The position numbers and the translations under genes are program-made. The notes under the pieces were generated by a model, which had not been told where the DNA came from, searched no databases, and saw only the letters and a list, made by a program, of their open reading frames with translations. From the NCBI GenBank assembly GCA_038087875.1, contig CM075988.1:3348001-3412000 (forward strand): a stretch of DNA of 64,000 bases, given 5' to 3'. This stretch comes from Malacoraja senta (Eukaryota). Positions 3,766-61,984 of the stretch are shown one piece after another; the stretch's first letter is position 1, and every line of letters starts with the position of its first letter.

Positions 3766-4119
3766 CAGCCAGAGATTATAGAGTGTAGTTGAGATTGTGT
3801 GGGAAGGAAGTGCAGATGCTGGTTTAAACTGAAGATAGAAACATCACACATTTCTTCTCTGCAGACATGACCCGAAACATCACTCATTCCTCCTCTGCAG
3901 AGATGCTGCCTGTCCCGCTGAGTTACTCCAGCTTTTTGTGTCTATCTTTAGTTGCCCTTGTGTTATGGGAAGGTTGCATACCTAGACAATTGTCCATATC
4001 ATGGCCGTTCGTGATGCAGACTACCCATTCCCATTAAATCCCGTTTTATCGATGGAGGGCATTCCTGTGGAATGTTTTTATCTCAACAACAGCAACTCAT
4101 GGGGATGTGGTCTATCGGC

Positions 4120-4323
4120 ATGGATATAGGGTGGGTCTATGACAAGAATATAGGATAGGTCTATAGGCGAGGATATGGAATAAGAATATAGGGAAGGATG
4201 TAGGATAGGTTTATAGGCAAGGTTATATAGAATTGGTCTATAGGCAAGGATATAGGATATATCTATAGATAAGAATGTACGGTGGGTCTAGAGGCAAGGA
4301 TATAGGGTAGGCCTATAGGCAAG
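4120..4323. repeat. Degenerate ~25-bp tandem repeat (ggatataggataggtctataggcaa)
   Basis: About 8 imperfect units visible. Confidence 0.8.
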
Positions 4324-4368
4324 GGAATTCTAAAACTGGAAATTTCTAGTGATTATTTACTTGCACAG

Positions 4369-4429
4369 AGACAATTGTCATCGGGTGGCGCATCCTTTCA
4401 CCCTTCTTGTTATTTTTAGTCTGTCTAAA
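4369..4429 (+). other. Candidate host-gene exon A (61 nt; xTIVIGWRILSPFLLFLVCL in one frame)
   Basis: Acceptor ttatttacttgcacag, donor AAA/gtaagt, apparently non-repetitive, hydrophobic open frame. Confidence 0.35.
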
Positions 4430-4559
4430 GTAAGTGGAGGTTTCCTAGTCTTTTTTTATGTGGGGAGGCGGAAGGGGAAGAGGGGAAACCGTTTCCCAGT
4501 CACTTCCTGGTTGGAGATGTGTCTTGTCTCCAAGTCACATCTTTGCCCCCTCCTCACGG

Positions 4560-5192
4560 TCTACCATCTGGATTGGCGTGGCCTTTCCTGCCCGAGACCT
4601 GCCAGAGCTTCAGCAGCGGCGCAGCACTGAATTACCATCGTGGAGCGGGCGATGCCTTACTGGGGATTGCCAGTGTTGAAGCTCAGGAGTGTTGGGCCTG
4701 ATGCTTTAACATCGTGAAGCTGTGGCCTGCGGAGCTTCTAACCGCAGGCGGCACTAACTTTAACATCGTGGAATCCTTGGATCCTGTGCCGAGGATCGCC
4801 AGTGTTGAATCTATGCCCAGCTCGGCCTGTGGACTTCGGGAGCCGTGGTCTCCGGTAAAAAGTGGCTGATTCGGAAACACCAAGCCGCTGAGTGTGTTCT
4901 TCCATTCCAACGTCGGAGTTCCGATCATCCCAGCAAGAGGGCCTGAACATCAGGCCACCGTAGCGGCGACTGCGGAGGGTGCAAAGGCCCCGACCACAGG
5001 TGAACAATGAGGAAGATGACTGAACTTTATTGCCTTCCTTCACAGTGGGAAATGTTGATTCTGCTGTGTGGGGATGTTCATGTTAAATTCTATCGTGTAT
5101 TCATTTTTGTTATTCGTACGGCTGTATGATAATTCAAATCTCACTGTACCAATTGGTGCATGTGACTATAAATGTAACTTGAACTTGAATTT
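4560..5192 (+). mobile_element. Non-coding dispersed retroposon (SINE-like) with a cttgaa-type tail; related copies at ~10150-10720 (-) and ~39725-39900 (-)
   Basis: Shared core gccttccatcacagtgaggaatgt...gtggtggatgttcatgttaaa and an aataaa-like 3' end with short-repeat tail. Confidence 0.6.
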
Positions 5193-5469
5193 CAGCTAAG
5201 GAAATGAACGTCCATATTTCAATTAACACTTTGATGTTTCTTGTTACATTTACACAAGCTGTTGCTACCATGGACAAAGACTGCCACATATGGCAGCCCA
5301 CCTGGACAGTAATCTCCAGGCAGGGACCCCAACTGCATTTCAATATATTATACAGTCTGCAAAGACTGGACCCTTCCCCACCCACTCCTCCCCAATCACC
5401 ACCTCACACCTACTTAAAGCCTGACCCCAGTCTGCAAAGACTGGGCACTCACCCACTACCCACCCCCCC

Positions 5470-6577
5470 TTGCTGCCCAACATCAGTCTGGCCACTTCTA
5501 CATCACTAACAATAGCAATTGAGGAGGTGGAAAAAGCTATTCAGGTAACAGAAAAAACGGAAATCTCCAGGACCGGAAATGTTTCCCCCTCTACCCTCAA
5601 GCTCTGTGCCAAACAACTGGCACCGGTCTACACAGACATTTACAATCCGTCCCTGCAAACCTGCACTGTCCCTGCCTGCTTCAAAGTCTCCACTATTGTT
5701 CCCATACCCAAAAAGCAAAGGATTAATGGTCTTAATGACTACAGGCCTGTCGTACTAACCTCTGTAGTCATGAAGACCCTTGAAAGACTTGTGATGGCCC
5801 ACCTGAAAAATATCACAAATCCCCTGCTGGACCCCCTGCAGTTTGCATATCTGGCAAATAGATCTGTGGATGATGCAGTCAACCTAGGCCTGCACTTCAT
5901 CCTCCAGCACCTAGACCACCAGGGGACCTATGCAAGGATTTTGTTTGTTGATTTTAGCTCCACATTCAACACCATTGTGCCAGAGCTACTACACTCCAAA
6001 CTCTCCCAGTTGACTGTGCCTGAACCCCTCTGTCAGTGGATCACCAGCTTCCAGACAGACAGGAAGCAGCATGTGAGGCTGGGAAAGCTCATCTCGGACC
6101 CACAGACCCCCAGCATAGGAGCACCGCAAGGCTGCGTACTCTCTCCTCTCCTCTACTTTCTCTACACCAATGACTGCTCCTCCACTGACTCCTCTGTCAA
6201 GCTTCTCAAATTTGCGGATGACACAACCCTGATTGGACTGATCCAGGATGGGGAGGAATCTGCCTACAGACAGGAAGTGACACAGCTGGCGTCCTGGTGC
6301 CGTTGCAACAACCTGGAGCTCAATGCTCTTAAGAGTGGAATTGATTGTAGACTTTAGGAGAGCTCCCCCTCCCCTCACCCCACTCACCATCAACAACACC
6401 ACAGTCACATCTGCGGAGTCATTTAAGTTCCTTGGCACCATCATCTCCAGGGACCTTAAATGGGGGGCTTCCATCGACTTCACCGTCAAAAAGTTCAAAC
6501 AGAGGATGTACTTCCTGCGGCAGCTGAGAAAACATAATCTGCCACAGGCAATGATGGTCCAGTTTTATACTGCCATC
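5470..6577 (+). mobile_element. Rex1/Babar-clade LINE RT fragment
   Basis: ORF 5470-6357: [57 protein letters not shown]; frameshifted continuation FKFLGTII, QRMYFLRQLRK. Confidence 0.92.
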
Positions 6578-6707
6578 ATTAATATGCGGGGTTCGCTGGT
6601 CAGCGTGGACCCGGTGGGCCGAAGAACCTGTTTCTCTGCTGTATCTCAAAACTAAACTAAACTAAACTAAAGGGTCCCAACTCAAAACATTGCTCATCCA
6701 TTCTTTA

Positions 6708-6982
6708 GGCTTTAGAGATACAGCACGGAAATAGGACCTTTGGCCCATCGAGTCCATGCCGGCCAGCGATCACCCCGTACACTGTCCTACACACTAGTTA
6801 CAATTTACAATTTTACTGAAGCCAAATTAAGCTACAAACATGTACATTTTTGGAGTGTTTGGGTGGAAACCGGAGTACCTGGAGGAAACCCACATGGTCA
6901 CAGGCAGACAGACAGCACCCGTAGTCAGGATCGAACCTGGGTCTCTGGCGCTGTAAGGCAGCAACTCTAGTGCTGCGCCGCC
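6708..6982 (-). mobile_element. tRNA-derived V-SINE/HE1-like SINE (representative copy). Further copies near 9598-9885, 31170-31350, 35135-35420, 40015-40370, 42275-42570, 42625-42925, 45180-45470, 46425-46835, 47050-47350, 47578-47730, 55115-55420, 56795-57100, 58080-58195
   Basis: tRNA-like head (A box ggcgcagc..tagag, B box ggttcgatcc), central gtgggtttcctccgggtgctccggtttcctcccaca, CR1-like tail gggccgaagggcctgtttcc ending in (ctaaa)n. Confidence 0.85.
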
Positions 6983-7520: not shown

Positions 7521-7780
7521 GCGGGGTTGGATACAATTGATGTACATGGATATCAGTGGCAGAGTCCTACTCAACAAGGGGGAAATATAACAGGTGGGTT
7601 TGGGTCAGTAACCTTTTTCAAACTGTACCCAGACTGCAGATGCCTGCGTATATGCACAGATGTGTTGCTGACAACATCCAGTATGGAATATTGTGCAGGG
7701 AGGAACTGCAGATGCTGGTTTAACCCGAAGATAGACACAAAAAACTGGAGTTAGTCAGCAGGATAGACAGCATAGGTCTC

Positions 7781-7985
7781 TGTAGATGACATGTGCATGT
7801 ACCTTTAACATAGTGACCTCACCACTACTAACCACTCCCCACATCACTAGTATAATTACAACCTTCCCACCCAGTGCTCGCTCTCTCTGGTTCCGGTGAC
7901 GGACCACAAACAGCTAGGGCAGTAAAGTATGTGTATCATGAATAAACAGTAGTAAAGACACAGTGTGTTATGATGCCTCTTTACA
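7781..7985 (+). mobile_element. Solo LTR (205 bp) with 5-bp TSD GTCTC
   Basis: TGTAGATG...CTTTACA termini, aataaa at 7941-7946, gtctc at 7776-7780 and 7986-7990. Confidence 0.85.
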
Positions 7986-8094
7986 GTCTCGAAAGAAGAG
8001 TCTTGACCCGAAACGTCACCTATGCCTTTTCTCTGGAGATGCTGCCTGACTCGCTGAGTTATTCCAGTTTTTTGTGTCCATCTTTAGTATGGAA

Positions 8095-9413
8095 CTAGAA
8101 TGTGGGTCCCAGCATCTCACGGGAGGGCTGATCCCCCAAAGCAATATTCCACCTCTCCACCAATTCCAATATTGGTGGCCAGTGGGGTGGGGGGGGGGGC
8201 TTTCTGGAGCGCTAGTATGGGTGTTGTGGGCTGAAGAGACTGGTTTCCAGAGGGCTAGTATGGACAATGTGGGCCAAATGGATTCTTGGGCAGGCGGTTC
8301 AGTCACTCAAGCCTGTTGTGCTGGCAGCTCACTCACTCACGGCTGGTGGGCTGGCAGTTGACTCACAGCTATTCCTTGAAATTCCATTTTAAGCAGGGTA
8401 CAAGGCCACCAAATTCAAGTGCAGTTTCATACCACTTCAAGCAGGGTGCAAGGCCACCAAATTCAAGTGCAGTTTCATACCATTTCAAGCAGGGTGCAAG
8501 GCCACTAAAGACAGCTAGACGTGACCTCTCCATCCTCCATCTTGCTGAGACTGAGCCACGCCCACTCTTCTGGGTTTTATAGTCCCTCCCCCCTCTCACC
8601 AGAAGGGGCGTGGCCTTCATGGCATGATTAACAAGAGAGAGAATCTCAACATTTTTTAAACACTAATAACTCTTTTATTTTTCATCAATGGGATAAATCC
8701 TATTGTCCTGCACAGCGGAGGGGGACTGAGTAGGATGGCCAAAAATCACAGCCATACGTGGTAGCGTTTTTTCTAAAATCAATATAAAGCGCAAACAGGA
8801 AGTGGTCAAGATTAGACTTTTAATGATATAGAAGGCAAGGCAACTTTAATTAGGCAAGGCAACTTTAATTAGGCAAGGCAACTTTAATTAGGCAGGGCAA
8901 CGTTAATTAGGCAACACAGCTTTAGCATTTCCAAACCAAAGGCAACACAGTTTTAGCATTTCAAAACCAAAGGCAACACAGCTTTAGCATTTCCAAACCA
9001 AAGGCAACACAGCTTTAGCATTTCCAAACTATATTTTCAAACCACATTAAGGGCACTGACAGGTCAGTAAAACCACTCACAGTTTAGTAGACATGTGTTC
9101 AGTGTTATTCACAGCTCAGACTGAGAGACGTGACCTTCCCCCATCTTGCAGAGACTGACTGAGGCACTCAACACTTCCGGGTTTTATAGTCCCTCCGGAA
9201 GGGGCGTGGCCTTCAGGAGAGAGAATATGAACATTTATTAAACACTAATAACTCTTTTATTTTTCATCGATGGGAAAAATCCTGGTACTGCACAGCGGAG
9301 GGGGACTCTGAGTAAGATCGCCAAAAATCACAGCCGTAAGTGGCAGCGTTTTTTCTAAAATCAATATACAGAACAACAGGAAGTGGTCAAGATCAGACTT
9401 TTGGTAATATAGA
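8095..9413 (-). mobile_element. Non-autonomous Helitron-like element with internal minisatellites
   Basis: Minus strand A|TCTATATT...CTAG|T (TC start, CTAG end, AT target, no TSD); internal ~48-, 19- and 31-bp tandem arrays; ~300-bp 5' block duplicated. Confidence 0.7.
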
Positions 9414-10801
9414 TATTGCCAGGAGTCAGTCGAGGCTGCCCGTCTTCTCCGCCTTGTTGGTATGTTGTATCCTCTCCTCTGGCCAGTCCATCAGGAAGGC
9501 CGGCGGGATTAAAGGGGCGATGACCCTAGGCAGCCAAGGCATTCGACTCTAAGCTTGCTCGACTGCACATGGGCAACATCAGCACAGCGGAATAGCTGGT
9601 GGAGCCACTGCCTCACATCTCCAGAGACCTGGGTTTCCTCCTGATCTTGGGCGCTGTTTGTGTAGAATTTGCACGTTCTCCCTGCAAAACTGTCACTTTC
9701 CTCAGGTGTTTTGATTTAATCCGACATCCTAAGTACGTGCAGGCTAGTAATGGCCCATAGTGTTTGGGATGAGGAGAGAGTTGATGAAAACATGGCATAA
9801 TATATGTGTGAGCAATGTACTGTTGGATTAGTGTAAGTAGGTGGTCAGCATGGACTCAATGGGCCGAAGGACCTGTTTCCCTGCTGGATCTGGAGACTCT
9901 TCTTCAGACTGAGTCAGGGGAGAGGGAAACTAGAGGTATGAAAAGAACAAACCAAAGCCAGCAACGAAGATCAAGGAAAGATGGAGCCCACAATGGTCCA
10001 TTGTTGATTGTGGAGGAGGTGATAACGAGTAGTGAAGCTTGCAGAATGACTAGGGTGGGGGAGTGACGGAGAGAGAAGGAATGCAAGGGTTACTTGAAGT
10101 GAGAGAAATCAATATTCACACCGTTGGATTGTAAGCTTCCCAAATCATAATCATAATATTAATCATACTTTATTAACCAAGTATGTTTTGCAACATACGA
10201 GGAATTTGATTTGCCTTACAGTCACAGCAATAAAAAGCAACAAGACACACAAAATACATTTTAACATGAACATCCACCACAGTGACTCCTCCACATTCCT
10301 CACTGTGATGGAAGGCGAAAATAAAGTTCAATCTCTTCTCTTCTTTGTTCTCCCGCGGTCGGGATCTCGAGCCTTCCATTGATGGGACGATCTTGGCTCC
10401 CATAGCCAGCGGTCGGGCCCTCCGCATTGGGGCGATCAAGCTCCCAAATCGGGGGGATCTCAGCTCCCCGCGCCGGGCGATCGGACCCCAGGTCGGGGCA
10501 AGTCGAACATCCTGCGACTTTGGAACTTCCCAACATAGGTCTCCACCCAAGACTGCGAGCTCCTCGATGGTGAAATCCGCAGGCCGCGGTTGGAGCATCG
10601 ATCCCACGCAAGGGGTCTCAGACTCTGATAGTAAGTCCATGGCCCCACGGTGGGGCTCAAAATCAGTCTCGAGCAAGGCCGCCAGCTCCATGATGTTAGG
10701 CCACAGAGCAACAGGAGATACAGGTTGCTATTGTTTTTTAGACACAAAGTGCTGGAGTAACTCAGCGGGTCAGGCAGCATCTCTGGAGAAAAAGAATGGG
10801 T

Positions 10802-10829
10802 GACGTTTCGGGTCAGGACCTTTCTTCAG
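10802..10829 (-). ncRNA. Minimal type I hammerhead-like motif in a Penelope-derived repeat (stem II closing pair mutated)
   Basis: Reverse complement ctgaagaaaggtcctgacccgaaacgtc. Confidence 0.55.
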
Positions 10830-12284
10830 ACAGGTCTCTAGACCTTTTATTTAAAAAAATAGTCTGCAGAAGGGTGCCGACCCGAAATGGACCCGTGATC
10901 CCACGGACAATATCTGAGCGAACCCGAGCAGGAACGAGCCTAATATCTCAGCAAGACCTCAATGTGTGTCATTGTCCTTCAGTTTGTGGGAGATTCGATT
11001 GCCCATTTGCTCCCGGGGTGGGATAAACCCTTCCTTTATCACACAATGTGATGGAGAAACTCAGCCGGTCAGGCGGCATCTCTGGAAACATGGATAAGTG
11101 AGGTTTCGGTTGGACACCATTCATTCAGTCTGAAGGAGGGTCCTGACCGAAAATGTCACCTGGTCTTTTCGATGCTGGCTGACCCGCTGAGTTACTCCAG
11201 CACTTTGTGTCTACCTTCGGTATAAACCAGCATCTGCAGTTCCTTTCTACACATTGCTATTGTTATTTGTCTGTGTTCCAATAATGTGATAAGAAACTAA
11301 TTACAGGAGTATTTGTGAAGTTGGGGTTGGGGACACGGTAGAATGACTTTTGGTAACTCCCACTATTCAAATCAGGTTCTGTGAAACAACTTCTTAAGTT
11401 ACAAAAGTAAGTTAGCAACTATGGTCAACAAATAAAGAGAATGGATGGAAATGTCGAAACAATGCTGCAAAAGCTATTTGAACAATATTAATGAGGACAT
11501 AGCAATATACTTAACTATTAAATGCTCTCTGAAAATACATGGGTGGTAATTCATTCTTGAGGTGAATCAAGATGATTGTGATGGAGACTTGCAGACAAAG
11601 AGATAGCTGGCTCAATACAACCGGTCAAAGTCAAGGGGCATGTTGTTTCTTTAAAGGTAGATGCAGTTAATGTCATAATGAACAATAGGGCATCGTTAAA
11701 TGCTACCTTTACAGTCAAGATTGAGAATGAAGTGCCAGCGGTACAATGGAGATGAGACGTAAATCAACTTATTATAACATTTGTTGAATCGCAGTTGTGT
11801 TGTGTTGGAGCAGGGCGATTGTTAAGTATTGTTTCTACAAATTATACTTGCTCTATTGTCTCCAGGGACACGAAAGCCACGCATGAAAATGTAAAAAGGT
11901 TGAACAGAAGCAGAAGAACCAGTTGATAATCTTTTAATGTTGCAAGAACAGTGGGAGCAAACAGTGGAGGTAAGTGACAGCAAGCACCAATACGACTAAA
12001 TGTGAAGTGGGAGAGTGAATTTGCGAAGTGTGAAGTTGCTCTACAACACTCCAGTAGGGCTCTGGGGAGTGTTGTAGAGCAGATCCAGGAGTGCAGGTGC
12101 ATGGATCCTTGAAGGTGGAGTCGCAGGTATATAGGGTGGTCAAAAAGGCATTTGGCACTTTTTTTTTTGGAGATGGGGTTTGTGCCGCAGGAAGCTTGCA
12201 GGACTAGTCGAGATTTCCCAGGAGACACAAAATGCTGGAGCAACCCAGCGGGACAGGCAGCATCCCCGGAGAGAAGGAACGGGT

Positions 12285-12312
12285 GACTTTTCGGATCGAG
12301 ACCCTTCTTCAG
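12285..12312 (-). ncRNA. Minimal hammerhead-like motif in palindromic Penelope-derived element (~12222-12412)
   Basis: Reverse complement CTGAAGA A GGGT CTCG ATCC GAAA AGTC. Confidence 0.6.
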
Positions 12313-13426
12313 ATTTATTTTTCTTCAGAGATGCTGCCTGTCCCGCTGAGCCACTCCAGCACTCCGTGCCTACCTTCGATTTAAACCAGCATCTGCAGTT
12401 CTTTCCTGCACATTTTCCCCAGGAGAAGTAGGTTGAGGAGAGGTTGTGTTAAAAGACTGAAATGCTGCACTAAGAACTGCAATAGGATTATTCTGTCACA
12501 ATAGAATAACAGAGAAAGCCCGACTTACTCAGAGGACATCGGGACAAGTGAACAAGCAAATATTCTGGGTGTCGATCTCTCCATTGACTCTACACAGGCG
12601 GTGCCTCAGTCTAAGTCTAAAGCTAGGAATCAGATTCCCTGTGTGGTACTTCAACGCATTTCATGTTTTCTTTTGAGAGACAAACAAAAACGCAATTAGT
12701 CAAAAGTTGGCGTGACCACTGGTTTGATGGTGCTTTAAGGAAAATGTTACCTCTTCTCTCTTCCTTACAGGTGCTGACAAACCCACGCTGGGTTGGCATT
12801 CGGCACATTGGTCTTCATCAGAGTATTGAGTATAGAAGTTGGGAGGTGACGTTGCAGTTGTAGAAGACATTGGTGAGGCCGCATTTTGAGAATTGTAGAT
12901 AGACATAAAGAGATCTATAGAGGGTAGAAGGCCGTTCTGGGGACCGGTGGAGACAGGGGAAGGGGTCTTCACTGGGTGGCAAAGACTACTTCCCATAGAA
13001 AAAGGCGCGGAGGCAGAGGTGACGGAAGAAGAGGCCGACGTCGTGGCAGACCCAGAACTCGTTGAGGTGGGGACGGAGGGGAACAAAGGTGAGGCCTCTG
13101 TTGAGGACAGACCGTTCCGTATCAGAAAGGGGGAGGTCAGGGGGGGATGGTGAAGGCATGACAAGGGTGGGGGTTGGGGTCAGAGGAGGGCTGGGGAGTG
13201 AACAGAGGCCGAGGTGGGATCTAGTGGGGGGATGGTGGGTGTTCAGAGAGGAGGGGGGCTTGAGGACTATTGTATGGATGGGCTGCGGTTACTCCGAACA
13301 CACACCACCCATACAATAATCTCAGCCTCTGTCCATTCCCCGGCCCCCCTCTGACCCCAACCTCCACCCTTGTTGTGTCTTCACCATCCCCCTGACTATA
13401 TTTCTAACTGCCGATGTGACATAAAC

Positions 13427-21299: not shown

Positions 21300-23676
21300 G
21301 TGGATAAATGTGAGGTTATCCACTTTGGTGGCAAGAACAGGAAAGTAGACTATTATCTGAATGGTGGCCGATTAGGAAAAGGGGAGATGCAACGAGACCT
21401 GGGTGTCATGGTACACCAGTCATTGAAAGTAGGCATGCAGGTGCAGCAGGCAGTGAAGAAAGCGAATGGTATGTTAGCATTCATAGCAAAAGGATTTGAG
21501 TATAGGAGCAGGGAGGTTCTACTGCAGTTGTACAGGTGAGACCACACCTGGAGCATTGTGTACAGTTTTGATCTCCTAATCTGAGGAAAGATATTCTTGC
21601 AATAGAGTGAGTACAGAGAAGGTTCACCAGACTGATTCCTGGGATGGCAAGACTTTCATATGAAGAAAGACTGGATAGATTCGGCTTGTACTCGCTAGAA
21701 TTTAGAAGATTGAGGGGGGATCTTATAGAAACTTACAAAATTCTTAAGGGGTTGGACAGGCTAGATGCAGGAAGATTGTTCCCGATGTTGGGGAAGTCCA
21801 GAACAAGGGGTCACAATTTAAGGATAAGGGGGAAGTATTTTAGGACCGAGATGAGAAAAAAATAATTTACACAGAGAGTGGTGAATCTGTGGAATTCTCT
21901 GCCACAGAAAGTAGTTGAGGCCAGTTCATTGGCTATATTTAAGAGGGAGTTAGATGTGGCCCTTGTGGCTAAAGGGATCAGGGGGTATGGAGAGAAGGCA
22001 GGTACAGGATACTGAGTTGATCAGCCATGATCATATTGAATGACGGTGCAGGCTCGAAGGGCCGAATGGCCTACTCCTGCACCTATTTTCTATGTTTCTA
22101 TGTAAGATACCTCACATGCTCATTGTCTCTTTGATGACCTGCTATCCGACTTCCCACTCCCTCATCTTTACTATAGACGTTCAGTCACGTTACACCTCAA
22201 TCCCCCACCAGGAGGGCCTTAAAGCCGTCCTTTTCTTCCTTCACCGCAGAACAACCCAATTTCCCTCTACTAAAACTCTACTCCACCTAGCAGAGTAGGT
22301 CCTCACCCTCAACAACTTCTCCTTTGACTCCTCCCACTCCCTCCAAATCCAAGGCGCAGCTATGGGCACCGGCATGGACCCTAGCTACAGTATGTCTGCC
22401 TCTTTGTAGGGTACATTGAACAATCGTCGTTCCAGGCGTACACTGGCCCTATCCCTGAACTCTAACTCCATTACATTGATGACTCATGGACTTCATCAAC
22501 TTCACCACCAATTTTCATCCTGCTCTCAAATTTACTTGGACCATCTCCGCCACCTACCTCCCCATTCTTGATCTCACAGTCTCCATCACAGGAAATAGAT
22601 TATTGACTGACGTGTATTACAAACCCACTGACCCACAACTATCTCAACTACACTTCCCACCCTGCTTCCTGCAAAGACTATCTCCTGCTCCCAATTTCTC
22701 CATCTACGCCGCATCTGCGCCCAAGTTGAGGTCTTCCATACTAGAACATCGAGATGTCCTCATTCTTTAGGAAACGGGGGTTTCCCTCTCCCAACATAGA
22801 TGAGGCCCTCACTCATGTCTCCTTGGTACCCTGCAGCTCCGCCCTTACTCCCCCTCCCCCTAGTCGTAACAGAGACAGAGTCCTCCTAGTCCTTACATTC
22901 CACCCCATCAGCCGTCCCATACAATGCATAATCCTCCAAAATTTCCGCCACCTCCAATGGGATCCTACCACTAGCCACATTTTCCCATCTCCACCTCTTT
23001 CCGCCTTCTGCAGAAACCGTTCCCTCCGCAACTCCCTGGTTAACTCATCCATTCCCACCTAAATCACCCCCTCCCCAGGTACCTTCCTCTGCAACCGCAG
23101 AAGATGCAACACCTGTCGCTATACCTCATCCCTCGACTCTGACCAGAGACCCCGACAGTCCTTTCAGGTTAGGCCAAGGTTCACTTGCACCTCCTCCAAC
23201 CTCATCTTCTGTATCCATTGTTCAAGATGTGGACTCGTACATCAGCGAGACCAAACGCAGACAGGGCGATCGTTTCGCTGAACACCTTCAGCCCACCTGA
23301 ACCAACCTGATCTCCCGGTTGCTGGACACTTTAATTCTCCTTCCCATTCCTACACAGACCTTTCTGTCATCGGTCTCCTCCATTGTCAGAGTGAGGCTAA
23401 ATGCAAATTGTAGGAGCTGCATCTCATATTTTGCTTGGGCAGCTTACAGATCAGTGGTATGAATATTGATTTCTCTCAATTCAGGTAGCCCCGGCATTCC
23501 CTCTCTCTCTATCCCTCCCCATCCAAGTTGCACCAGCTTCTCATTTTCACACAACAAACAGCTAACAATGGCCTGTTTCCTTTATCATCGTTACTTTTTT
23601 GCATATCTTTCATTCATTGTTCTTTATCTCTCCACATCACCGTCTATATCTCTTGTTTCCCTTATCCCAAACTAGT

Positions 23677-23704: not shown

Positions 23705-23796
23705 GCCCATTCCTTCTCTCCAGAGATGCTGCCTGTCCCGCTGAGTTTTGTGTCTGTTTTCGGTTTAAACCAGCGTCTGTAGTTCTTTATTACACA

Positions 23797-43532: not shown

Positions 43533-44821
43533 GTAGGTTTTATTTTTCTGTGATCTGCAAACTCACATTGCTGTTTTTACGTTATAATGTCATACACAGG
43601 GGCAGTAATCTATCAGTCGGCATGGAATCGTTGGTGAATTTTTATGTTGGGTTGGTTTTAGATGAACAATGAGATTAAGCAACGGAAAAATCTACATTCA
43701 ATGTCCTTTTGTGACAATAACAATGAACGAAGAACTTCATTGCCACGCAGTCAACATTATGTAGCAGCTAATATTCTGCAGCTCAGCTGTACAAAGTAAA
43801 TTTGTAGATCGGAACAATGTGAGAGCAGCCTGCCAAAACACAATATTAACAAAACGCCAAGTTACATTTGAATTAAAAAATTACATTCAATGTCCTTTGT
43901 GACCTTGACAAAGAATGAAGAACTTCACTGCCCGGCAGTCAAATAACCCCTGACACCCATACTAATCAAGAATCTATCCACCACTCCCTTTAAAATATCC
44001 ACTGAGTTGGCCTTTTGTGGCAATGAATTGCTCAGATTCACCACCCTCTGACTAAAGAAATTGTTCCCCATCTCCTTCAAGGAGTCTGAATGTCATGTTT
44101 GATTTATGTGTGTACATAATGCTCCATGTACATAAAGAACATTATTGCATGTTCTTCCTCCCCTGATTCACCCTCCCCAGTCATTCCTGCTGTCAGTCCG
44201 GCCCTCAAGCACACATTCTTTTCCCACCCTAAATAGAACGGAAATAGACCTGTTCTTACCAAATAGGATTGCCATCACAAATGGAAACAAAGTGCTGGAG
44301 TAACTCAGCAAGCCAGGCAGCATCGCTGGAGAGTGTAGATTTAGTATAGCTTAAGGGCCTGTCCCACTTGGGCGACATTTGGGCGAATGCGGAGCGTCAG
44401 TGACTGACCCCCGTAAAACCGTCAAGTTGCACGACATACACGCTGACGTATGCTGTCATGCAGGTGATGCCCGGTTAGGGTTGAGGCTGTAAAATATTCT
44501 TACTTCAATGCATGGATTTTAAACATTAATATATTTAAATTAATACAATGAAATCAATTGTGCAAATAAAAAGATGTCTGGCATTCCGTTTTTTTTTAGA
44601 TGTATTGGTCTTCATCCAGATCCAATCACCATACCGCCTCCCCACACATCCCCTTCTCCCCCTCTCCCTCCTTTCTCCCATTCTACACAACCCCCCCCCC
44701 CATTTTCCCCGACGCCCCCCCATTTGTGGACCCTGCCTGCGACCAGCGATCCCCCACACACTATCCCACACACGCTACAGAAAATGTATACAAACCTGTG
44801 CGCCTTTGAAGTGCGGGAGGA

Positions 44822-44893: not shown

Positions 44894-47800
44894 AGGTTGA
44901 TAGGCTTGGTATAAGTATAAATTATCCCTAGCGTGTGTGGGATAGTGTGCGGGGGGTCGCTGGTCGGTGCGGACTCGGTGGGCACTGTATTTCTGAACTA
45001 AATGTGACACAGGGGCCCCAGGAATTGGACTCGAACCCCTAATGTTCTGCCTGCTCCTCATGGAAACTAAACTGTTGGCCACGAGTTGCCCCAGAGGCAG
45101 ATCGCTCTTCCAATAGTCTCTCCAAACCCCCAGAGGCAGCGGGCTTTTCAACTGGGTACAGGCAATGTTGTCAATGTACCTAAGAGATACAGCGTGGAAA
45201 CAGGCAGTTTGGCCCACCGAGTCCACGCCAACCAGCGATCTCCATACACTAGTTCTATCCTATGCACTAGGGACAATTTACAGAAGTCAATTAACATGCA
45301 AACCTGCACATGTTTGGTGTGTGGGAGGAAACCAGAGCACCTGGAGAAAACCCATGCGGTCCCAGGGACAAAATACAAACTCTGCACAGTCAGCCCCCAT
45401 GGTCAGGATCGAACCCGGGTACCTTGCGCTGTAAGGCAGCAACTCTACTGGTGTGTCACCGTGCCGCCCCATGGATGGGTAACGTTTCGGTTCGGGATCC
45501 ATCAGACTGCTTCATCACCATGTAGACCCATGTTTTCCCTGCCTCTATGTATTTTCACAGCCCTCCGCAGATGCTGGTTGACCCGCTGAGTTGCTCCAGC
45601 ACTTTATGCTTTGTCCAATATTGGCGAGTGAATACATTCAAGGAAAACAAACAAAAACTTGGTTTAGTTTAACGGCTCCAAGGCAGTCGTGTTCTGGAGA
45701 TTAATCCTGGATGTCTGGATGATTGAGAACAATCCGTCAAACCGACATCCTTACTTAGCTGTGTCAACAAGAGCAGAATGAGCAAATTGAAAGATCTCGA
45801 AACCTATCTTGCATTATGATCAGAGATCCAACAGGAAATAGTATGGTATTTATGAAGGAACAATGAGAAAAACCATAAAAAGTATGCAAATAAAGGTACT
45901 TTCACTAAAGATAACACACAAAGCATTGCTAAATGAACAGAAGAATCATTTATCATCATTTGCATGTAAAGTGATGAAATTTACTTATGGAGCAAACCTG
46001 ACCTATTCAAATCACTAATCTCTCAATAATCTACTTAATCTCTCAGCAAATTACGCAAAACCCTTCAACGTGATTCACCAAGCTGGCAAAGGGTGATTGC
46101 CAAAGTTCGACTTGAAAAATTAATATCAAGTCTAAGCTACGAGCCTTCAGACGATCTTGGTCGATATTAAAGAGCTGGATGTTTTGTATGAAAGGGGACT
46201 GAAAAGTAAAGCTAAAGGAGCATTGAAACGGACTCAGATATCCCAGAATTGGCCTCCAGTTTGTAGTTTACAGCAGAAACTTAGATACATGGACTTGGCC
46301 TTTAAGACCACGTTTGCAAAGAATATTTACAAAATGGGATGTGCAGAAAATGCAGTGGATTGTCTGTATTAGTGATAGAACAAATGTAGATGAACTTTAA
46401 TTGTAGCTAAATCCTGTGGATTCTGGACAGGTGCTGTCTGTACGGGGTTTGTAATTTCTCCTCGTGACCTTGTGGGTTTTCTCCGGGTGCTCCGGTTTCC
46501 TTTGTCCGTAGTGTGTGTGTAGGATAGTGTTAGTGTGCAGGGATCGCTGGTCGGCATGGACTCGGTGGGACGAAGGGCCTGTTTCCGTGCTGTATCTCTA
46601 AATGTAACAAAACTAAACTAATATACAGCGTAGAAACAGGCCCTTCAGCCCACCTAGTCCACACCGGCCAGCGATCACCTGAACGCTGGTTCTATCCTAC
46701 ACACTAGGGACAATTCACTGAAGACAATTAACCTACAAACCTGCATGTCTTTAGAACGTGGCAGAAAATTGGAGCACCCGGAGAAAACCCATGCGGTGGG
46801 CCGAAGGGCCTCTTTTCACGCTGTATCTCCAAAATAATAAACTTACAGCCCTCACCTTAATCCTATGTCTGGTTCTCAATTGCAAAGATCTTTACTGCAT
46901 CCATTTTGATGATGGTTATTAATTTTACTTCCGTTGACACAGTTTAGTAAGAATGTCAGTCTTCCAGGATCGTTGCTAAAGCATCAGACATGTCGGATTA
47001 ATCTTCAGGACACTGCAGCCATTGAAGCAGTAAACAAAACTATCTCTTTAGTTTAGTTCAGGTTAGAGATCCAGCACGGAAACAGGCCCATCAGCCCAAC
47101 GAGTCTGCACTGACCAGCGATCCCAGCACACTATCCTACACACACTACGAACAATTTGACATTTATACCAATTAACATACAAACCAGTACGTCTTTGGAG
47201 CGTGGGAGGAAACCAAAGATCTCGGGGAAAACCCACGCCGGTCACGGGGAGAAATTACAAACTCCATACAGACAGCACCCGTAGTCAGGATCGAACCTGG
47301 GTCTCTGATACTGTAAAGCAGTAGTTCTACCGCTGCGCCACCGTGCCACCCTATATCCAGCATTTTCTTTTTGAAATGTAGATGAAATTTAAATTGAAAA
47401 GCCCACGGTTTCCTTGTTTGGAGTAGGTGAACATTTTACAGATTTTACATATTAAAACACTGCTGGATTATAATGTAGAAAACTGTAGCAGGATTGTAGT
47501 TAATAAGAGGGAACGTGCAGAAAGCTGCGATTATCATTTGAGGGCTGAACAGTGACTCAGCTGGTAGATTTATTTTCGGGTGGCACAGCTGTGCAGCAGT
47601 AGAGTTGCTGCCAGAGTTCCAGGTTTGATCCTGACTTTGGGTGCTATCTGTGTGAAGTTTACATGTTTTCCCTGTGAGCACGTGGGTTTCCTTTGAGTGC
47701 TCTGGTATCCCACAGATGAGTGGATGTGTAGGTCTTCTTCTTTCCTGTCCATCTTCCATGTTTCAAATGTTGACATCGCTGTCATCGTCCGTCCTGAAAA

Positions 47801-48628
47801 GGACGCAAGCTTCCGGCGACAATCAGTGGGAGCCATCACTTATTGCAGTAGATGATGGTGGTAGCAGAATTAGCTCGGGATACTTCCAGTTTCCAGCCCC
47901 GTGACGTGGACGCTTCTGCTATGGGGCCGATGTGTGGGATAATTGGACTATGTTGGCCAATTATCTAAATTGCCCTCCCAGCACAATGAAGTTTTAGACA
48001 AAATTGCCGTTTTCTCAACTCACCAAGAGTAGTTCCCCAACTTGAAACAAAGCTAAAGAGGCCACAATGTGCTGGAGTAATGTAGCAGGTCAGGCAGCAT
48101 CTTTGGAGAACATGGATAGATGATGTTTCGGGTTGAGACCCTTCTTCACATTGAATGGGGGGGGAGGGGGGGGGAGTTGAAGAAATAAACTGGAAAAGGG
48201 GAGTGGGAGGACAAAGCGTGGCAGATGACAGGCCAACACAGGCGTGGGGGCATTTTTGACAGGCAGATTATTGGAACAAAGGCCAGAGATAAGAACAGTT
48301 GGTGAGACAGGTTTGAAGAGTTGCTGATGGTGAAGCCGGGAAGGAAGGTAGCAGGAAGTGGAGGTGGAGGTGGAGGTGGAGGTGGAGGGGAGAAATAGCT
48401 GGGAGTCCGAATGGAGCCCAGGGGAGGGGAGTAGGGGAAAGAAAGGTGTGGGAGAGAAAGGGGAAGGTGTTAGTTAGATGTTACAGGAAATCGGAGAATT
48501 CAACATTCATACCATTGGGTTGTAATATGTAGGAAGGAACTGCAGATGCTGGTTTAAACTGAAGATTGCCACAAAAAGCTGGTGGAACTCATCGGGTCAG
48601 GCAGCATCTCTGGAGAAAAAGAATAGGT

Positions 48629-48655
48629 GACGTTTCGGGTTGAGACCTTCTTCAG
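48629..48655 (-). ncRNA. Minimal hammerhead-like motif (one stem II G missing)
   Basis: Reverse complement ctgaagaaggtctcaacccgaaacgtc. Confidence 0.55.
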
Positions 48656-48691
48656 ACTGAGAGTCAGGGGAAAGAGAAATGGGAGATATAG

Positions 48692-52989: not shown

Positions 52990-55900
52990 TGTGCAGTTTT
53001 GGTCCCCTAATTTGAGGAAGGACATTCTTGCTATTGAGGCAGTGCAGCGTAGGTTTACAAGGTTAATTCCCGGGATGGAGGGGCTATCATATGCTGAGAG
53101 AATGGAGCTCTGGAGTTTACAAGGATCAGAGGGGATCTCATTGAAACATATAAGATTGTTAAGGGTTTGGACACGCTAGAGACAGGAAACATGTTCCCGA
53201 TGTTGGGTGAGTCCAGAACTAGGGGGCCACAGTTTAAGAATAAGGAGTAAGCCATTTAGAACAGAGACGAGGAAACACTTTTTCTCGCAGAGAGTGGTGA
53301 GTCTGTGGAATTCTCTGCCTCAGAGGGCGGTGGAGGCGGGTTCTCTGGATGCTTTCAAGAGAGAATTAGATAGGCCTCTTAAAAATAGCGGAGTCAGGGG
53401 ATATGGGGAGAAGGCAGGAATGGGGTACTGATTGGGGATGATCAGCCATGATCATATTGAATGGCAGTGCTGGCTCGAAGGGCCGAATGGCCTACTCCTG
53501 CACCTATTGTCTATTGTCTATCATTAAAGATTACCACTAGTAATTATACCTTTGTTTGCACTTAAGTGCAGTTTTGTGTGTTAGGATGAAATCTGAAATT
53601 CATAAAGGATTTATAAATTCTCCTACTGAGCAGAGTTGAAAGTGGAACAACATGGAACTGGTTTGAACAGGTAGGTGATTGATGGTCAGCGTGGGCTTAG
53701 TTTAGTTTAGTTTAAAGATACAGCGTGGAAACAGGCTTTTCTTTCCCAGAACCCCAAAATGGCCGAGCTCCTCTGTCAAGGAATCCATTACCAATCCTAG
53801 CGCTGAATAGGCCGAGCCCTGAAAAAGACCATGTAGCCTCCCTGGAGGACATACATAGACAACGTTTTGGGTGGAGATCCTTCTTCAGAATGATTGTAGT
53901 GGGGTGGGGGGGGGGGGGGGGGCAGAAGAAATCTGGAAGAGAGGTAGCGGCGGGACAAGTCTGGCAAGTGATAGGTGGACAGATGAGGGTGGGTGGGGGG
54001 GGGGGGGGGGTGTTGGTTGATGGTTGTACAAAGGCCTGAGATGAAAAGTCAAAACGTGTGAGATACGGTAAGGATAGAAGAGGCATGAAATGTGAAGCCA
54101 GAGGAAGGAAACTGCTTTCCACTTACATTCCTTCCTCTAACTTCACATTTTCTCTGGCCATATTTGGAATACTGTGTTCATTTTTGTCACCCTGTTACAG
54201 GAACGGTATCAATAAGTTGGAAAGGGTGCAAAGAAGATTAATGAGGATGTTGTAAGGATTGGCGAGCCTGAACTACGAGGTGGGATTGGACAAGCTAGCA
54301 CTTTATTCCTCGGAGCGCAGGAGGCGAAAGGGTTTTTATATTAGAGGTGGATAACATCATGAGGGGCACTGATAGGGTGAAGGCACAGAGTCTTTTCCCC
54401 ACAGTTAGGGAATCAGTAACCAGGGCACTGATTTAAGGTTTAAGATGAGAAGGGAAAGATTTCATAGGAACCTGAGGAGCAACTTTTTCATTCAAAGGGT
54501 GGTAGGTATATGAAACGCATTTCCAGAGGAGGTAGCTGAGGCAGGTACAATAACAACACTTAGACCGGTACATGGATAGGAAAGGTTTAGAGGGATGTGG
54601 GCCAAATGCGGGCCAATGGGACGAGCTTAGATGGGGAATCTTGGTCGGCATGGGCAAGTTGGGCTGAAGAGCCTGTTTCCATGCTGTGTGACTTTTTGAC
54701 TCTATGACAAAATTAACCTCACTTAATCTCTGCTTTTTTTTTAATGGTTATATTTGTGCTTTTGATGATGTCCTTCATATTGATCACGGCTTCTCGGCAG
54801 TTTCTTGACACTTGAAGAAACAGCAAGCAGCATGCATAGTTTAAATGAGATGCATCGTTTAAAGGAGATGTGTGGAGCAAGTTTTTTACACAGAGCGTTG
54901 TGAGTGCCTGAAACCTGCTGCCGGAGGTGGTAGTGGTGGAGGCAGATATGATAGTGGTGTTTACGAGACCTTTTAGATAGACCCATGGATATGCAAGGAC
55001 TGGAGAGATATGGATCAGGTATAGACAGATGCATTTAATTTCTGCTTTCATTATGTTCAGCACAGGCATTGTGGGCTGAAGGGCCTGTGCTGTACTGTTC
55101 TATGATCAGGGGTTCAGTTTAGTTTAGTTCAGAGATACAGCACGGAATCAGACCCTTCAACCCACCGGGTCCACACCGACCAGTGATCCCTGCACACTAA
55201 CGCTATCCTACACACACCAGGGACAGTTTACAATTATACCAAGCCAATTAACCTACAAACCTGTGCGAAAGTGGGACGAAACTAGAAACCCCGGAGAAAA
55301 CCCACGCACGTCACAGGGAGAACGTGCAAACTCAGTATAGACAGCACCCGTATTCAAGATCGAACCCTGGTTTTTGACGCTGTAAGGCAGCAACTCTACC
55401 GCAGCGCCGCCATGCCGCCCTTCGTTGTATAGATAGACTGTAGAGACTGGGAGTGTTGCTTTCTGGAGATACAGCGTTGAAGCAGACCTATTGTTCTATT
55501 GGGATTGCTCCTGCCCCGACATGATGCACAGGGTCAATGCTTCAAGATCAGTAAATATATCTGCGGTGTTGTGGACAGTTGCAAAGAGGAAATTTCATAT
55601 TAAGGAAGTCAGAGATGCAATGTTGTATTTTCACATTGAAAATTGAACAATGTTTTTATCAGGAGTGGAATAAACAGTAACTGAGTATTTGATGCCTGTT
55701 CTCTGTGTTACTCCTTTTGGACGTGTGTTAAGATAATTAGTCCAAATTGAAGACACCAAGTCTTGTTCTCCTTGTGTTTATTTTGCATAGATTATTTTCT
55801 AAATGGGGAGAGAATTTAGAAATCGGAGGTGCAAAGGGACTTGGGAGTGCTGGTGCAGAATTTCCATAATTTGCAAGTGGAATCGGTAGTAAGGAAGGCA

Positions 55901-57338: not shown

Positions 57339-58775
57339 GTAAGTCGCATCTGTTTGGTCTTGTTCCCCAAGCTGGTCCTGCCAGTGTATCTGTGGTAAAC
57401 AGCATTTGGTTTCTGTAAGGCTTTTTACAAATTCAATAGAAAGTTTTGTTCTTTCAGGAATTTGGTTTGCGAATAGGTTTTATAATAGAAAATGATTCTA
57501 ATCTCTTTTTCATTGCCATCTTATTATTTATTTATTTTTTCGTGTTATGAGCAGAATTAGGCCAATTTGGCCCATCAAGTGTACTCTGCCAATCAATCAT
57601 GGCTGATCTATCTCTCCCTCCTAAGCCCATTCTCCTGCCTTCTCCCCTTAACTCCTGACACTCGTACTAATCAAACCTAATAATCAACTCCTAACCCCAT
57701 TTTGCCAGGACTATATATTACACTATATGTGTTTATTTATTGAGTATGTGTACATGTGTATATACACACACTGAACATTTTTTTCCTTTTTTCCCCCTCC
57801 CATTATGTACTATGATTACATATTCTGTTGTGCTGCAGCAAGTAAGAATTTCATTGTCCTATCTGGGACATATGACAATAAAACACTCTTGACTCTTTCA
57901 ATTGTATGAAACCTTTTTTACTGCTGTGCAATTGAGAACCATCATTTGCGCTTTGGCGTTTGACCTGCACCCCGAATCTGGCTTTCATGTGAGGCCCAGA
58001 CCGCCTCTTAATGACGGCTCAGATCAGAACATCACGCAACGAAAATCTCATCCAGCATCTCGGTGAAAACCTAGGCATGGTCACGGGGAGAACGTACAAA
58101 CTCCGTCCAGACAGCACCCATAGTCGGGATCGAACCGGGGTCTCCGGCACTGCAAGCGCTGTAAGGGAGCAACTCTGCCGCTGCGCCACCGTGACCACCA
58201 CTTTCAAACTTGTCCAAATTTGTTACAATTTCTAGAGATTCCTTCTTCAAATGACCCTGTTGTTACTTGGCCATGCCCATATTAATGACGGCATCTGATG
58301 TGCCTGCGCATCTAGCTCACCTCCGACCTGCCGCAAATTCCCATTCCAGCACCTGCACTCCCTTTTATTATCCCTAATTTATCACCTCCTCTCTTTTAGT
58401 ACACTCTTCCATCTCTCCATTCACATCCATTCATTCTTTCTTTCTGTAATTCCTCATTCCTATCCTGAGAACATCACCACTGCACAATATTGTTTACCCT
58501 CTTCTTCTTGTCGTGAGCTTACTGTAAAACGTGTACTGAGGCTCCCACGGGAGGTTACAGTTTAGGGTAGACAAAAAAGCTGTAGAAACTCAGCGGGTGA
58601 GGCAACATCTATGGAGCGAAGGAAATAGGCAACGTTTCGGGCCAAAACCCTTGGGTTTCGGGCCAAAACCCTTGGGTTTCGGCCTGAAACCTTGCCTATT
58701 TCCTTCGCTCCATAGATGCTGCCTCACCCGCTGTGTTTCTCCAGCATTTATGTCTACCTTCGATTTTCCAGCATC

Positions 58776-59308: not shown

Positions 59309-59315
59309 AAACACA

Positions 59316-59352
<37 letters not shown>

Positions 59353-59401
59353 ATACTCACACACACCCACACACACTCACATACCCACACACACACACAA
59401 G

Positions 59402-59442
<41 letters not shown>

Positions 59443-59458
59443 GCTCACACACACAAGC

Positions 59459-59489
<31 letters not shown>

Positions 59490-59509
59490 TACTCACACTT
59501 ACACACACA
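58776..59509. repeat. Long compound (CA)n microsatellite
   Basis: Direct inspection. Confidence 0.98.
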
Positions 59510-61703
59510 AGGTATTTCATTATCAAGTAAAGGCACTTTTATTCCCATCGATATCCAAGGGGTTAGCTGCACCTGAAGGGAGACACACCTGAGTGCTGGA
59601 GTAACTCAGCGGGTCAGGCAGCATCTCTGGAGGAGAAGGATAGGTGACGTCTCTTGTCGGGACCCGTCTTCAGATTTCCGTATCTGCCTTTCACCCGTCC
59701 TGCAGATATTTGTTTCCACAACTCCACCCAAACCTGTCCCAAGACCTCCAGAGAAACCTGTCCCAACACCTCCAGACAGTCTCCATTAAATTATTCCTAT
59801 CCTTCTTGTCTACTTCTTAAATGGGGCATATTGTCCCTACTTTTGCCGTAGCTGGTGGACAAACAGAGTCTGCCTGAGATGTGAGGAGAATACAAGGAGG
59901 CAGGAGAATGTGAGCAGGCTAAGTGAATGGTAAGAATGTGTCAAATGAGTATTGTGTGGAAATCCACTTTAGTAGCAAAGAATAGTGAGTGGAGCACTTT
60001 TTAAAAAGATTGAAGCCTATTGGTATTTAGAAGGATCTGGATATCCTTTTAAATAAATTGTGAGAAAGTTCACCTGCAGGTACAGTGAGGACATGTCGAC
60101 ACGTGACACCTGTCCTGTCTGGTCGTGAGTAGTCACCCAAAGAGTCATACCTTTTTCTGGTCGCCGCTGGATTTTCAACATTTTGACATTTTTTAGCGAC
60201 CTGCTGCAACTATGATGCGTGCCGGCAAGTCGCCGAATAAATCACGTGTGGGGCAGTAGGCCCTTTACTGAAACTAAGTTGTGTCCTGATGAGATGGTAT
60301 CTAGAATATTATGTACAACACAAAATGCTGGAGTAACTCAGCAGGTCAGGCAGCATCTCGGGAGAACATGAATAGGTGACCTTTCAGCTCAGAACCCTAC
60401 TGCAGAAAGGTTGTAGTAGCAGAGAGAAAGCTGGAAAAGAACCATGTATAAAACCATGAGAGAAATCGAACGGTTAGATACTTAGAGTCTCTTGCCCAGA
60501 GTAGGTGAATCGAGAACCAGAGGACATAGATTTAAGGTGAAGGGGAAAAGATTTAATAGGAATCGGTGGGATATCTATTTCACACAAAGGGTGGTGGGTG
60601 TATGGAACAAGCTGCCAGAGGAGATAGTTGAGGCAGGGTAGACACAAAATGCTGGAGTAACCCAGCGGGACAGGCAGCATCTCTGGAGAGAATGAATGGG
60701 TGATGTTTTTGGGTCAAGAACCTTCTTCAGTTGAGGCAGGGACAATCCCAACATTTAAGAAACAGTTAGACAGGTTTGGAGGGATATGACCCAAACTCGG
60801 GAAGGTGGGACTATAGCTGGGACATGTTGGCCGGTGTGGGCAAATTGGGCCGAAGAGCCTGTTTTCACGCTGTATCACTCTATGACTCTAACTGGAGGCA
60901 GGACAAAGCCTGGCAGGCGATGGGTGATACAGGTGAGGGGGCGTTTTGATGGGTGGATAAAGGCTAGAGATGAAAGGGAGCCAAAAGATTGAGAAGGAGA
61001 CGAAAAGGTGTCAGGTGAGCTGTACAACCAGAGGGAGGCATTACTCCAACACTGGCTACCCGGACGTGGCGCCGACAGACAAGTAGCTGAAGCAAAGAAG
61101 TCGAAGCCAAAGAACCGAATAGAAACGAGGCCGAAACGCCAATGAACCGAAAGAGTCCGAAGACGAAACGCCTACTAACCGAAAGTATGGAACGCCTAAA
61201 TGCAAACTAACCGACAGGGAGGGACGCCTAAAAGCCAATGAACCGAAAGGTTGCGTCGCCTAAAAGCAAACTTACCGAATGGCCGCTCTGTCGAAACGCC
61301 ACCTTCCCGAAAGGCGGCGAAAGAACGATTTATACATGTAATACATGATATACATTTCTACATGGTTAATTAACTGGTGTATATCATGTATTACATGTAT
61401 AAATCGTTCTTACATTCGGGAACATGGTTAATTAACATGGCATTATTTCCCTGTCCTAACGGCCTTTGTTTTAGCCGGTGATTCCATCTATTCCATCCCT
61501 CTCTCACAAAGATGTGGGATTTCAATTTGAGCGCACTTGTTTGAATAGATGCAAGCGGCATGTACAGCCGCAATACACGAAAAGATGAAATGAGACAACT
61601 GTCACACCAAAGATAGACACAAGATGCTGGAGTAACTCAGCTGAAGAGTCAGCGTCTCTGGAGAGAAGGATGGTGTTTCGGGTCGAGACCCTTCAGACGC
61701 ACT

Positions 61704-61731
61704 CTGAAGAATGGTCTCAGCACGAAACGTC
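61704..61731 (+). ncRNA. Degenerate hammerhead-like motif in palindromic Penelope-derived element (~61610-61765)
   Basis: ctgaagaatggtctcagcacgaaacgtc. Confidence 0.45.
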
Positions 61732-61984
61732 ACCCATTCCTTCTCTCCAGGGATGCTGCCTGTTTTGTGCGTGGGAGCTTGGGTGCGTTACGCAAACACC
61801 GAGATGGTAATAAATAAACCGTCTGTCCCCGCGGCCGGGGTGAATCACCCTGGTGTGGGTGTCAAAGCCCGGGGGTCGGGGGGGGGGGGGTCGGGGGAGG
61901 GGAATCACCCTGGTGTGGAGGTTGGGGTCCGATGGCGGTGCATCGCGGTCAGTGACTGTGGGACGCTCCCGCGGGTGGAGACGG

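Follow-up and report, generated by a model that had tools for sequence, protein, structure and literature searches.

Hammerhead-bearing pieces of Penelope-like elements in the genome of the skate Malacoraja senta, and a possible origin of the short copies

Short hammerhead-bearing repeats in a 64-kb window

The stretch of contig CM075988.1 of Malacoraja senta analysed here (64,000 nucleotides, positions 3,348,001 to 3,412,000; the window) is densely filled with copies of a short repeat that carries a minimal hammerhead ribozyme motif. The repeats are almost certainly pieces of the pseudo-long terminal repeats (pLTRs) of Penelope-like elements (PLEs). Overall, they are probably best explained as pLTR pieces of 95 or 130 bp, the short ones being by-products of copying the front end of uncut RNA.

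A profile built from 10 window copies gives 50 matches in the window when E<=1 is allowed and 45 when the limit is E<=0.01; five shuffled windows together yield two. An earlier note on this DNA had counted about 20 copies: all 17 positions that it listed match a copy (for the minus strand it gave the lower coordinate of the motif), but the family is denser than it stated. With the first core base, C3, as position 0, 24 of the 45 copies extend to C3 and the remaining 21 are cut within the hammerhead or downstream of it. Twelve head-to-head pairs with gaps below 60 nt, an arrangement absent from the earlier note, account for 24 of the 45. Tandem arrays of hammerhead-bearing units are not found among the 32 TRF rows of the window; short tandem runs of copies occur occasionally in the genome sample described below.

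One broken Penelope element is found in the window:

22104..23488, plus: 5'-truncated Penelope open reading frame (ORF) with reverse transcriptase (RT) thumb, CX4CxxC linker and GIY-YIG, broken by several stops and frameshifts; amino acids 781-1237 of the intact L115 protein (53-75% identity)
23489..23673, plus: pyrimidine-rich 3' untranslated region (UTR) of subfamily D
23674..23796, plus: pLTR unit of minimal hammerhead (C3 at 23677, A6 mutated) and downstream part with tail

The other copies, with the position of C3 in brackets where given, are:

3796..3953, mixed strands: cluster of partial copies, an inverted fragment followed by two tandem 5'-cut plus-strand copies
6670..6723, plus: weak partial copy (E 0.0069)
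7713..7787, minus: copy cut at about +40, without hammerhead
7992..8095, plus: decayed solo copy
9892..10145, minus: long copy that keeps the last codons of the ORF and the 3' UTR and breaks off inside stem II
10739..10890, both strands: head-to-head pair (10829 minus, 10864 plus)
11041..11232, both strands: head-to-head pair (11128 minus, 11130 plus)
12222..12391, both strands: head-to-head pair (12312 minus; partner cut at +37)
31028..31123, minus: solo copy cut at +8
31505..31595, minus: decayed solo copy
31656..31839, both strands: head-to-head pair (31743 plus)
31997..32124, both strands: head-to-head pair, both members cut after the hammerhead
32781..32883, plus: solo copy, core removed by an internal deletion
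33039..33209, both strands: head-to-head pair (33133 minus)
33603..33705, plus: decayed solo copy
33723..33909, both strands: head-to-head pair (33824 plus, core intact, loop III not palindromic)
34210..34403, both strands: head-to-head pair (34319 minus)
34910..35010, minus: old solo copy
35839..35982, minus: copy with a piece of 3' UTR (35948)
36157..36475, both strands: tandem partial copy and head-to-head pair (36344 minus, 36372 plus)
36736..36910, minus: copy with a piece of 3' UTR (36846)
44274..44333, minus: copy cut at +39
45471..45608, both strands: decayed head-to-head pair
48053..48530, minus: long copy in which the last codons of the ORF, a long 3' UTR and the hammerhead remain (48149, C3 mutated)
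48524..48691, minus: copy with tail, directly upstream of the long 48053..48530 copy (48655)
53827..53892, minus: decayed copy (53888)
58566..58766, both strands: head-to-head pair with the UUCG type of loop and a central 21-bp stem II repeat
59571..59676, minus: solo copy (59673)
60318..60407, minus: solo copy (60405)
60637..60731, minus: solo copy (60730)
61602..61804, both strands: head-to-head pair (61704 plus)

In the assembly (1.94 Gb) the family was sampled in sixty 10-kb stretches from the 18 largest contigs, spaced evenly by hand, with small contigs over-represented. The 291 profile matches in these 600 kb extrapolate to 0.94 million copies (bootstrap 0.75-1.15 million), and 34 motifs intact by a strict minimal-hammerhead descriptor extrapolate to about 110,000 per genome (shuffles 0-1). 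By the same descriptor none of the 45 window copies is intact, and there are 144 matches in 1.2 Mb of sequence. That no copy is perfect, as the earlier note had it, is thus correct for the window but not for the genome, where two core variants have 14,022 and 19,101 exact matches (reversed controls 0). Among 237 pairs of neighbours in the sample, 54 are head-to-head and 19 are tandem within 60 nt; Penelope ORF sequence amounts to about 10.6 kb per 600 kb. Contigs of four related organisms also hold the repeat family.

Parent elements and the hammerhead motif

The link to Penelope is borne out by the copy at 23677, which lies 189 nt past the stop of the broken ORF, and by intact elements that carry the motif. 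The copies at 9890-10145 and 48060-48530, which had been tied to the same ORF, do keep last ORF codons, but their 3' UTRs are unlike that of the 23677 element and they therefore belong to other subfamilies. In the 1.2 Mb of sequence the motif follows about 35 ORF 3' ends at a distance of 85-250 nt (count read from a list).

A search of the genome with the ORF of a relative retrieved a young subfamily with open frames of more than 1,200 codons. Its loci (L111-L126) hold numerous open frames of up to 1,250-1,300 codons that are almost identical, and judged from these sequences the subfamily was probably active recently. L113-L116 have the motif both upstream and downstream of an ORF of more than 1,200 codons. 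In L115 the direct repeats are 165 bp long and 98.8% identical, and the ORF of 1,238 amino acids begins 163 nt after C3; DKG, YIDD and GIY-YIG-like motifs are visible in its protein. The N-terminal half of the young-subfamily protein is long and proline-rich, with variable repeats. The linker C-X4-C-X2-C is present in L115, L008 and the window remnant. According to passages of PMC8557442 a CX2-5CxxC linker is the mark of the Neptune and Nematis clades, and by this motif the parent elements of the repeats appear to be Neptune/Nematis-type PLEs of several subfamilies. Like the endonuclease-encoding (EN+) PLEs of these clades in the same passages, the skate elements have RT followed by a C-terminal GIY-YIG in one ORF, direct pLTRs from partial tandems, an inverted 5'-truncated copy at the 5' end (L114, L117 and L126) and an optional tail of 30-40 bp; unlike them, they have the long proline-rich N-terminal region and a huge excess of 95/130-bp products. 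Internal Penelope ORF fragments without pLTR are also present in the window, at 12935-13190 and 52727-52957 (minus) and at 14226-14372 and 15336-15647 (plus).

Among 326 cores, four subfamilies could be told apart, each with a 3' UTR of its own, and there are others. The four consensuses share 89-100% identity in the hammerhead and 85-97% in the downstream part, and are far more alike there than in the upstream UTR (53-72%), which suggests that the hammerhead unit is constrained in master elements. The constraint is likely restricted to these. A comparison aimed at selection on the core after insertion gave 0.959 in the core and 0.946 downstream, both figures being alignment-biased and giving no verdict. 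Within the motif the subfamilies differ by a U-A to U-G pair, by the stem II loop (CUCG, UUCG or CCCG) and by C or U at H17, all differences compatible with function. Covariation in stem II, proposed earlier as a check, was not seen: changes are one-sided, with no double compensatory change at the level of subfamilies, and the only double stem II change is in a single copy among the 144 intact motifs, in families that are too close for a strong test. The other motif letters in the contigs of the four relatives are the same one-sided or CpG changes.

The motif is as first described: a CUGANGA/GAAA/UH core with an extra A, a 4-bp stem II, a palindromic ACGU and a helix I of 2 bp. With a base between 9 and 10.1, G10.1-C11.1 and a palindromic 15.2-16.2, it shares these features with the minimal hammerhead ribozymes (min-HHRs) of metazoan PLEs in passages of Cervera and De la Pena 2014 (PMC4209133), which supports the reading as a minimal type I hammerhead. 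It is unlike them in its 4-bp helix II and in helix I, which has 2 bp in all four consensuses, not the 4-5 bp of the minimal type I hammerhead; this does not exclude the min-HHR family, because the same passages describe a Drosophila virilis variant with a helix I of 2 bp.

In ViennaRNA predictions, which ignore tertiary contacts and protein, stem II has a probability of at most 0.03 in each of the four leaders, since the purine-rich core finds partners in pyrimidine stretches downstream. For L115 (2864-2997) and the four consensuses, the predicted partner of the core is either the stretch of pyrimidines that follows the cleavage site or the tail end, and in such a model this pairing could be an off-state. 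An intermolecular ACGU helix III has a predicted gain of about -3 kcal/mol. A fold of the hepatitis delta virus (HDV) type was considered for the Penelope leader and rejected by eye, as the P1 partner is lacking. Also by eye, sites resembling splice acceptors are seen in the leader of L115 (2840-3040), immediately upstream of -1 and upstream of an ATG near +50, and a site like a splice donor lies at the main ATG. The +50 ATG opens a short frame that overlaps the start of the ORF in another register.

Ends of the short copies and their possible origin

The 3' ends of the copies cluster at +93..96 and +123..132, about 35 nt apart. This pair corresponds to the optional 30-40-bp tail of PLEs (passages of PMC8557442) and to the two RT start sites of PAc, the Poseidon element of Anolis carolinensis (Frangieh et al. 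2024, PMC11167929). Target-site duplications (TSDs) of 10-22 bp at these ends were found for 27 of 162 low-divergence copies, compared with 0-1 after shuffled pairing.

The 5' ends were counted in unselected DNA for 157 copies anchored on the downstream part: 51 start at -6..+1, 72 at +2..+50, 10 at -20..-7 and 24 further upstream. The stop rate per base is 0.102 at -6..+1, 0.012 at +2..+50 and 0.026 at -20..-7. Exact genome-wide counts of the young subfamily bear this step out: patterns that start at +6, 0, -2 and -6 have 24,118, 19,101, 16,371 and 9,376 matches, a loss of 21% across six inside bases versus 51% across six upstream bases. In 21 TSD-anchored copies not selected for AGT, the commonest match length is 2, with nine copies, followed by 1 with five and 0 with three. 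About half of the young copies extend beyond the boundary, and of 18 young copies that pass -7, 16 reach -35 or further. In the contigs of the four related organisms, loose ends are found at the same -6..-2 places. There is no peak of 5' ends at the hammerhead cleavage site (7/157 at +27..+30); a separate HDV-headed retroposon of the same window (see below) does start exactly at its own cleavage site.

We lean slightly towards a mechanism in which the short copies are made from the leader of the element. Transcription would start at TCAGT immediately upstream of the hammerhead core, a sequence that we take to be initiator-like. Reverse transcription would start internally at +95 or +130, as it does for PAc in vitro, and because internal priming on the 5' copy of the pLTR meets the end of the RNA, a run-off of 95-130 nt would result. 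The template would be uncut RNA, as for PAc. Head-to-head pairs would arise when both strands of the cut target act as primers, as has been shown with PAc, and the copies would decay after insertion. Cutting by the hammerhead would likely need the protein of the element or a second copy. Passages of PMC2377424 describe an internal TATA-less promoter in the Penelope of D. virilis. More tentatively, a start 2-3 bases before the core and leader priming about a million times may have been accompanied by some copies seeding a family like a short interspersed element (SINE), since promoter and priming sites would lie inside the unit.

Several observations weigh against this reading. The transcript start is deduced from the ends of copies. 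The 5' ends are spread over several bases with the mode at -2 and not at the initiator A at -3, and those at -4..-6 may include long copies of unmodelled subfamilies, as four references were used. A cap-derived G before AGT is not in excess (32 G, 42 A and 26 T in the first 100 of 5,016 matches, counted by eye), and the 72 of 157 starts within +2..+50 show that ordinary truncation is common too. Only 52 copies were haplotyped, and SINE-like offspring would share haplotypes with long copies as well. Both Pfam matches of the L115 protein (RVT_1, E 6.6e-6; GIY-YIG, E 0.0015) are below the curated cut-offs, and the Rfam hammerhead models, suggested before as a check, match neither the motif in the window (E<=5) nor that of an intact pLTR (E<=10).

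In the main rival, which we consider doubtful, priming takes place on the 3' pLTR and the short copies are insertions with the usual 5' truncation: just past the hammerhead the RT would tend to stall, or to switch to the target, because of the pyrimidine tract, a fold or a bound protein, and the boundary would be no transcription start. The spread of ends over -6..+1, often with 1-2 bases of TSD microhomology, would suit a stall, as would the lack of extra cap G, the nearly half of copies that stop further inside, the half of young copies that go past the boundary and the strong 5' truncation that passages of PMC8557442 give as typical of PLEs. However, the stop rate drops again beyond -6 and most young copies past -7 run on to at least -35, a fold-induced stop would be expected on the 3' side of the fold and not on its 5' side, and the boundary is a TCAGT kept across subfamilies with UTRs only 53-72% alike.

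Less probable still is a self-sufficient non-autonomous retroposon, with promoter and protein-binding site inside 130 bp, whose short copies are transcribed and beget short copies. Its attractions are the discrete ends and TSDs, some 0.9 million copies set against so little ORF sequence, the internal promoter of D. virilis Penelope, rotifer pLTRs that suffice in cis for mobilisation (passages of PMC3846280) and the proposal, in passages of 10.64898/2026.07.22.740005, that retrozymes are pLTR derivatives. Yet among the 52 typed copies there is no short-only lineage: 33 of the 38 short copies match long copies, the other five are all singletons, and each of the seven haplotypes with at least two copies includes a long copy. 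The same short products are moreover made in at least four subfamilies, which also have long ORF-linked copies. The earlier description as a non-autonomous family is therefore not shown, and by-products fit better than a separate family because short and long copies share haplotypes.

That the boundary is a 3' splice site and the short copies stem from spliced RNA is very improbable: a pyrimidine tract ending in CAG stands before -1 in all four subfamilies and in D. virilis an intron runs up to the 5' end of helix I (passages of PMC4209133), but in most anchored copies the TSDs abut the element at -2..0 and leave no room for an upstream exon.

The repeats are also unlikely to cut host messages, as the earlier note had thought they could, and we give hardly any credence to intact copies as working ribozymes in host introns or UTRs that cut pre-mRNA alone or as dimers. 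The extrapolated number of intact motifs, the predicted gain from an intermolecular helix III, the tandem neighbours within 60 nt and subfamily differences that all keep function possible would allow such cutting. Against it stand the 0/45 intact copies in the window, the 2-bp helix I, the competing helices predicted to bury the core and the lack of a 5'-end peak at the cleavage site. The head-to-head pairs put one copy in each transcript and would fold into hairpins, not dimers. Published monomers do not cleave (passages of PMC4209133), and PAc needs its own protein and has no RNA-seq ends at the site (PMC11167929).

A separate ribozyme-headed retroposon and comparison with known systems

Among the copies of the Penelope repeat lies one unrelated element:

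47733..47928, minus: young 196-bp retroposon with HDV-like ribozyme head, GAA-repeat tail and 10-bp TSD

The CPEB3 ribozyme model of Rfam matches the window at 47863-47940 (minus, 29.4 bits), and the retroposon begins exactly at the first G of this CPEB3-like HDV ribozyme. Three of six relatives (among L232-L272 and L283-L311) are above the Rfam gathering score. Genome-wide, there are 255 exact matches to a 30-mer and 1,993 first-look candidates. Of 30 fetched copies, which were selected for an intact head and include two pairs of duplicates, 27 have a TSD, which in 24 cases lies directly against the first G of the ribozyme, a count without shuffled control. Apart from P4, the Rfam CPEB3 consensus is matched at about 39 of 49 positions (by eye); P2 and P3 are identical, the 6-bp P1 has two compensatory G-C to C-G swaps and P1.1 has 2 bp. 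On sequence grounds the retroposon looks like a bipartite non-autonomous long interspersed element (LINE), a type for which passages of PMC5786205 name RTE, Ingi, Vingi and R2 as sources. An autonomous partner was not found: the lone long copy (L263) is a short element with nested insertions, and 29 variant matches continue as the same short element. The retroposon is likely processed by its own ribozyme and is possibly related to the element from which the CPEB3 ribozyme arose. At L240 a copy interrupts a head-to-head Penelope pair at its centre. A literature search found no description of a CPEB3-like retroposon, and it may matter more than the Penelope repeats as a clue to where the mammalian CPEB3 ribozyme came from.

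Broken pol/gag remnants of a long terminal repeat (LTR) retrotransposon lie at 535-2385 (minus; RT_RNaseH_2, E 2.4e-29), and many LINE fragments with RT domains at 5425-6655, 13355-14086, 14587-15378, 16048-16665, 25503-28655, 37749-39298 and 50614-52412. Long near-perfect inverted repeats at 13136-13396 and 61323-61409 cause spurious miRNA matches in Rfam, and a gap of 200 N bases lies at about 34677-34876. No host exon was recognised among the window ORFs of at least 120 amino acids, with no systematic exon search made.

That PLEs carry hammerheads is already published, and the finding as first stated is ordinary. As in the skate, the minimal hammerheads in passages of PMC4209133 are found in both pLTRs, mostly as solo copies, in opposite-strand pairs and in several consensus families per genome. 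These passages name no cartilaginous fish and describe no pile-up of 5' ends, and their numbers of about 4,000 motifs in the coelacanth and about 9,000 in Xenopus, obtained with different descriptors, compare with about 110,000 intact motifs here; the axolotl has 126,247 canonical hammerheads in a far larger genome (passages of PMC7229834).

For PAc, internal priming and protein-assisted hammerhead cleavage that is dispensable for insertion have been reported (PMC11167929). Like the skate element, PAc has a hammerhead in its pLTR and two internal RT start sites that define an optional tail; its main template is uncut RNA, and both target strands are cut and extended, as we propose for the skate. 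Unlike PAc, the skate element has a Neptune/Nematis-type linker. The ORF of PAc begins at stem II, whereas that of the skate starts 163 nt after C3, so that both RT start sites would lie within the skate 5' UTR.

The non-LTR retrozymes in passages of PMC7229834 and 10.64898/2026.07.22.740005 are likewise non-coding, hammerhead-bearing and pLTR-related and occur in vertebrates, including one chondrichthyan. They are tandem arrays of 150-450-bp units, with canonical hammerheads in the 2020 paper, whereas the skate copies are dispersed solos and head-to-head pairs with minimal hammerheads; for the tandem elements of 10.64898/2026.07.22.740005, cleavage was seen in 1/9 dimers. In a literature search the family was undescribed in sharks, skates or rays, and the supplements of PMC4209133 and 10.64898/2026.07.22.740005 could hold chondrichthyan motifs.

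What the skate data add is the scale of the family, with about 0.9 million copies and about 110,000 intact motifs, and its sharp ends. These ends bear on where the RNA of PLEs starts and on whether the hammerhead cuts during transposition, and the young subfamily with its intact ORFs makes both questions testable in vitro. If the short copies do derive from the front end of uncut RNA, the skate genome would be a fossil map of the start site of a PLE and of both its RT start sites, and the hammerhead would be shown not to cut in the templates of transposition.

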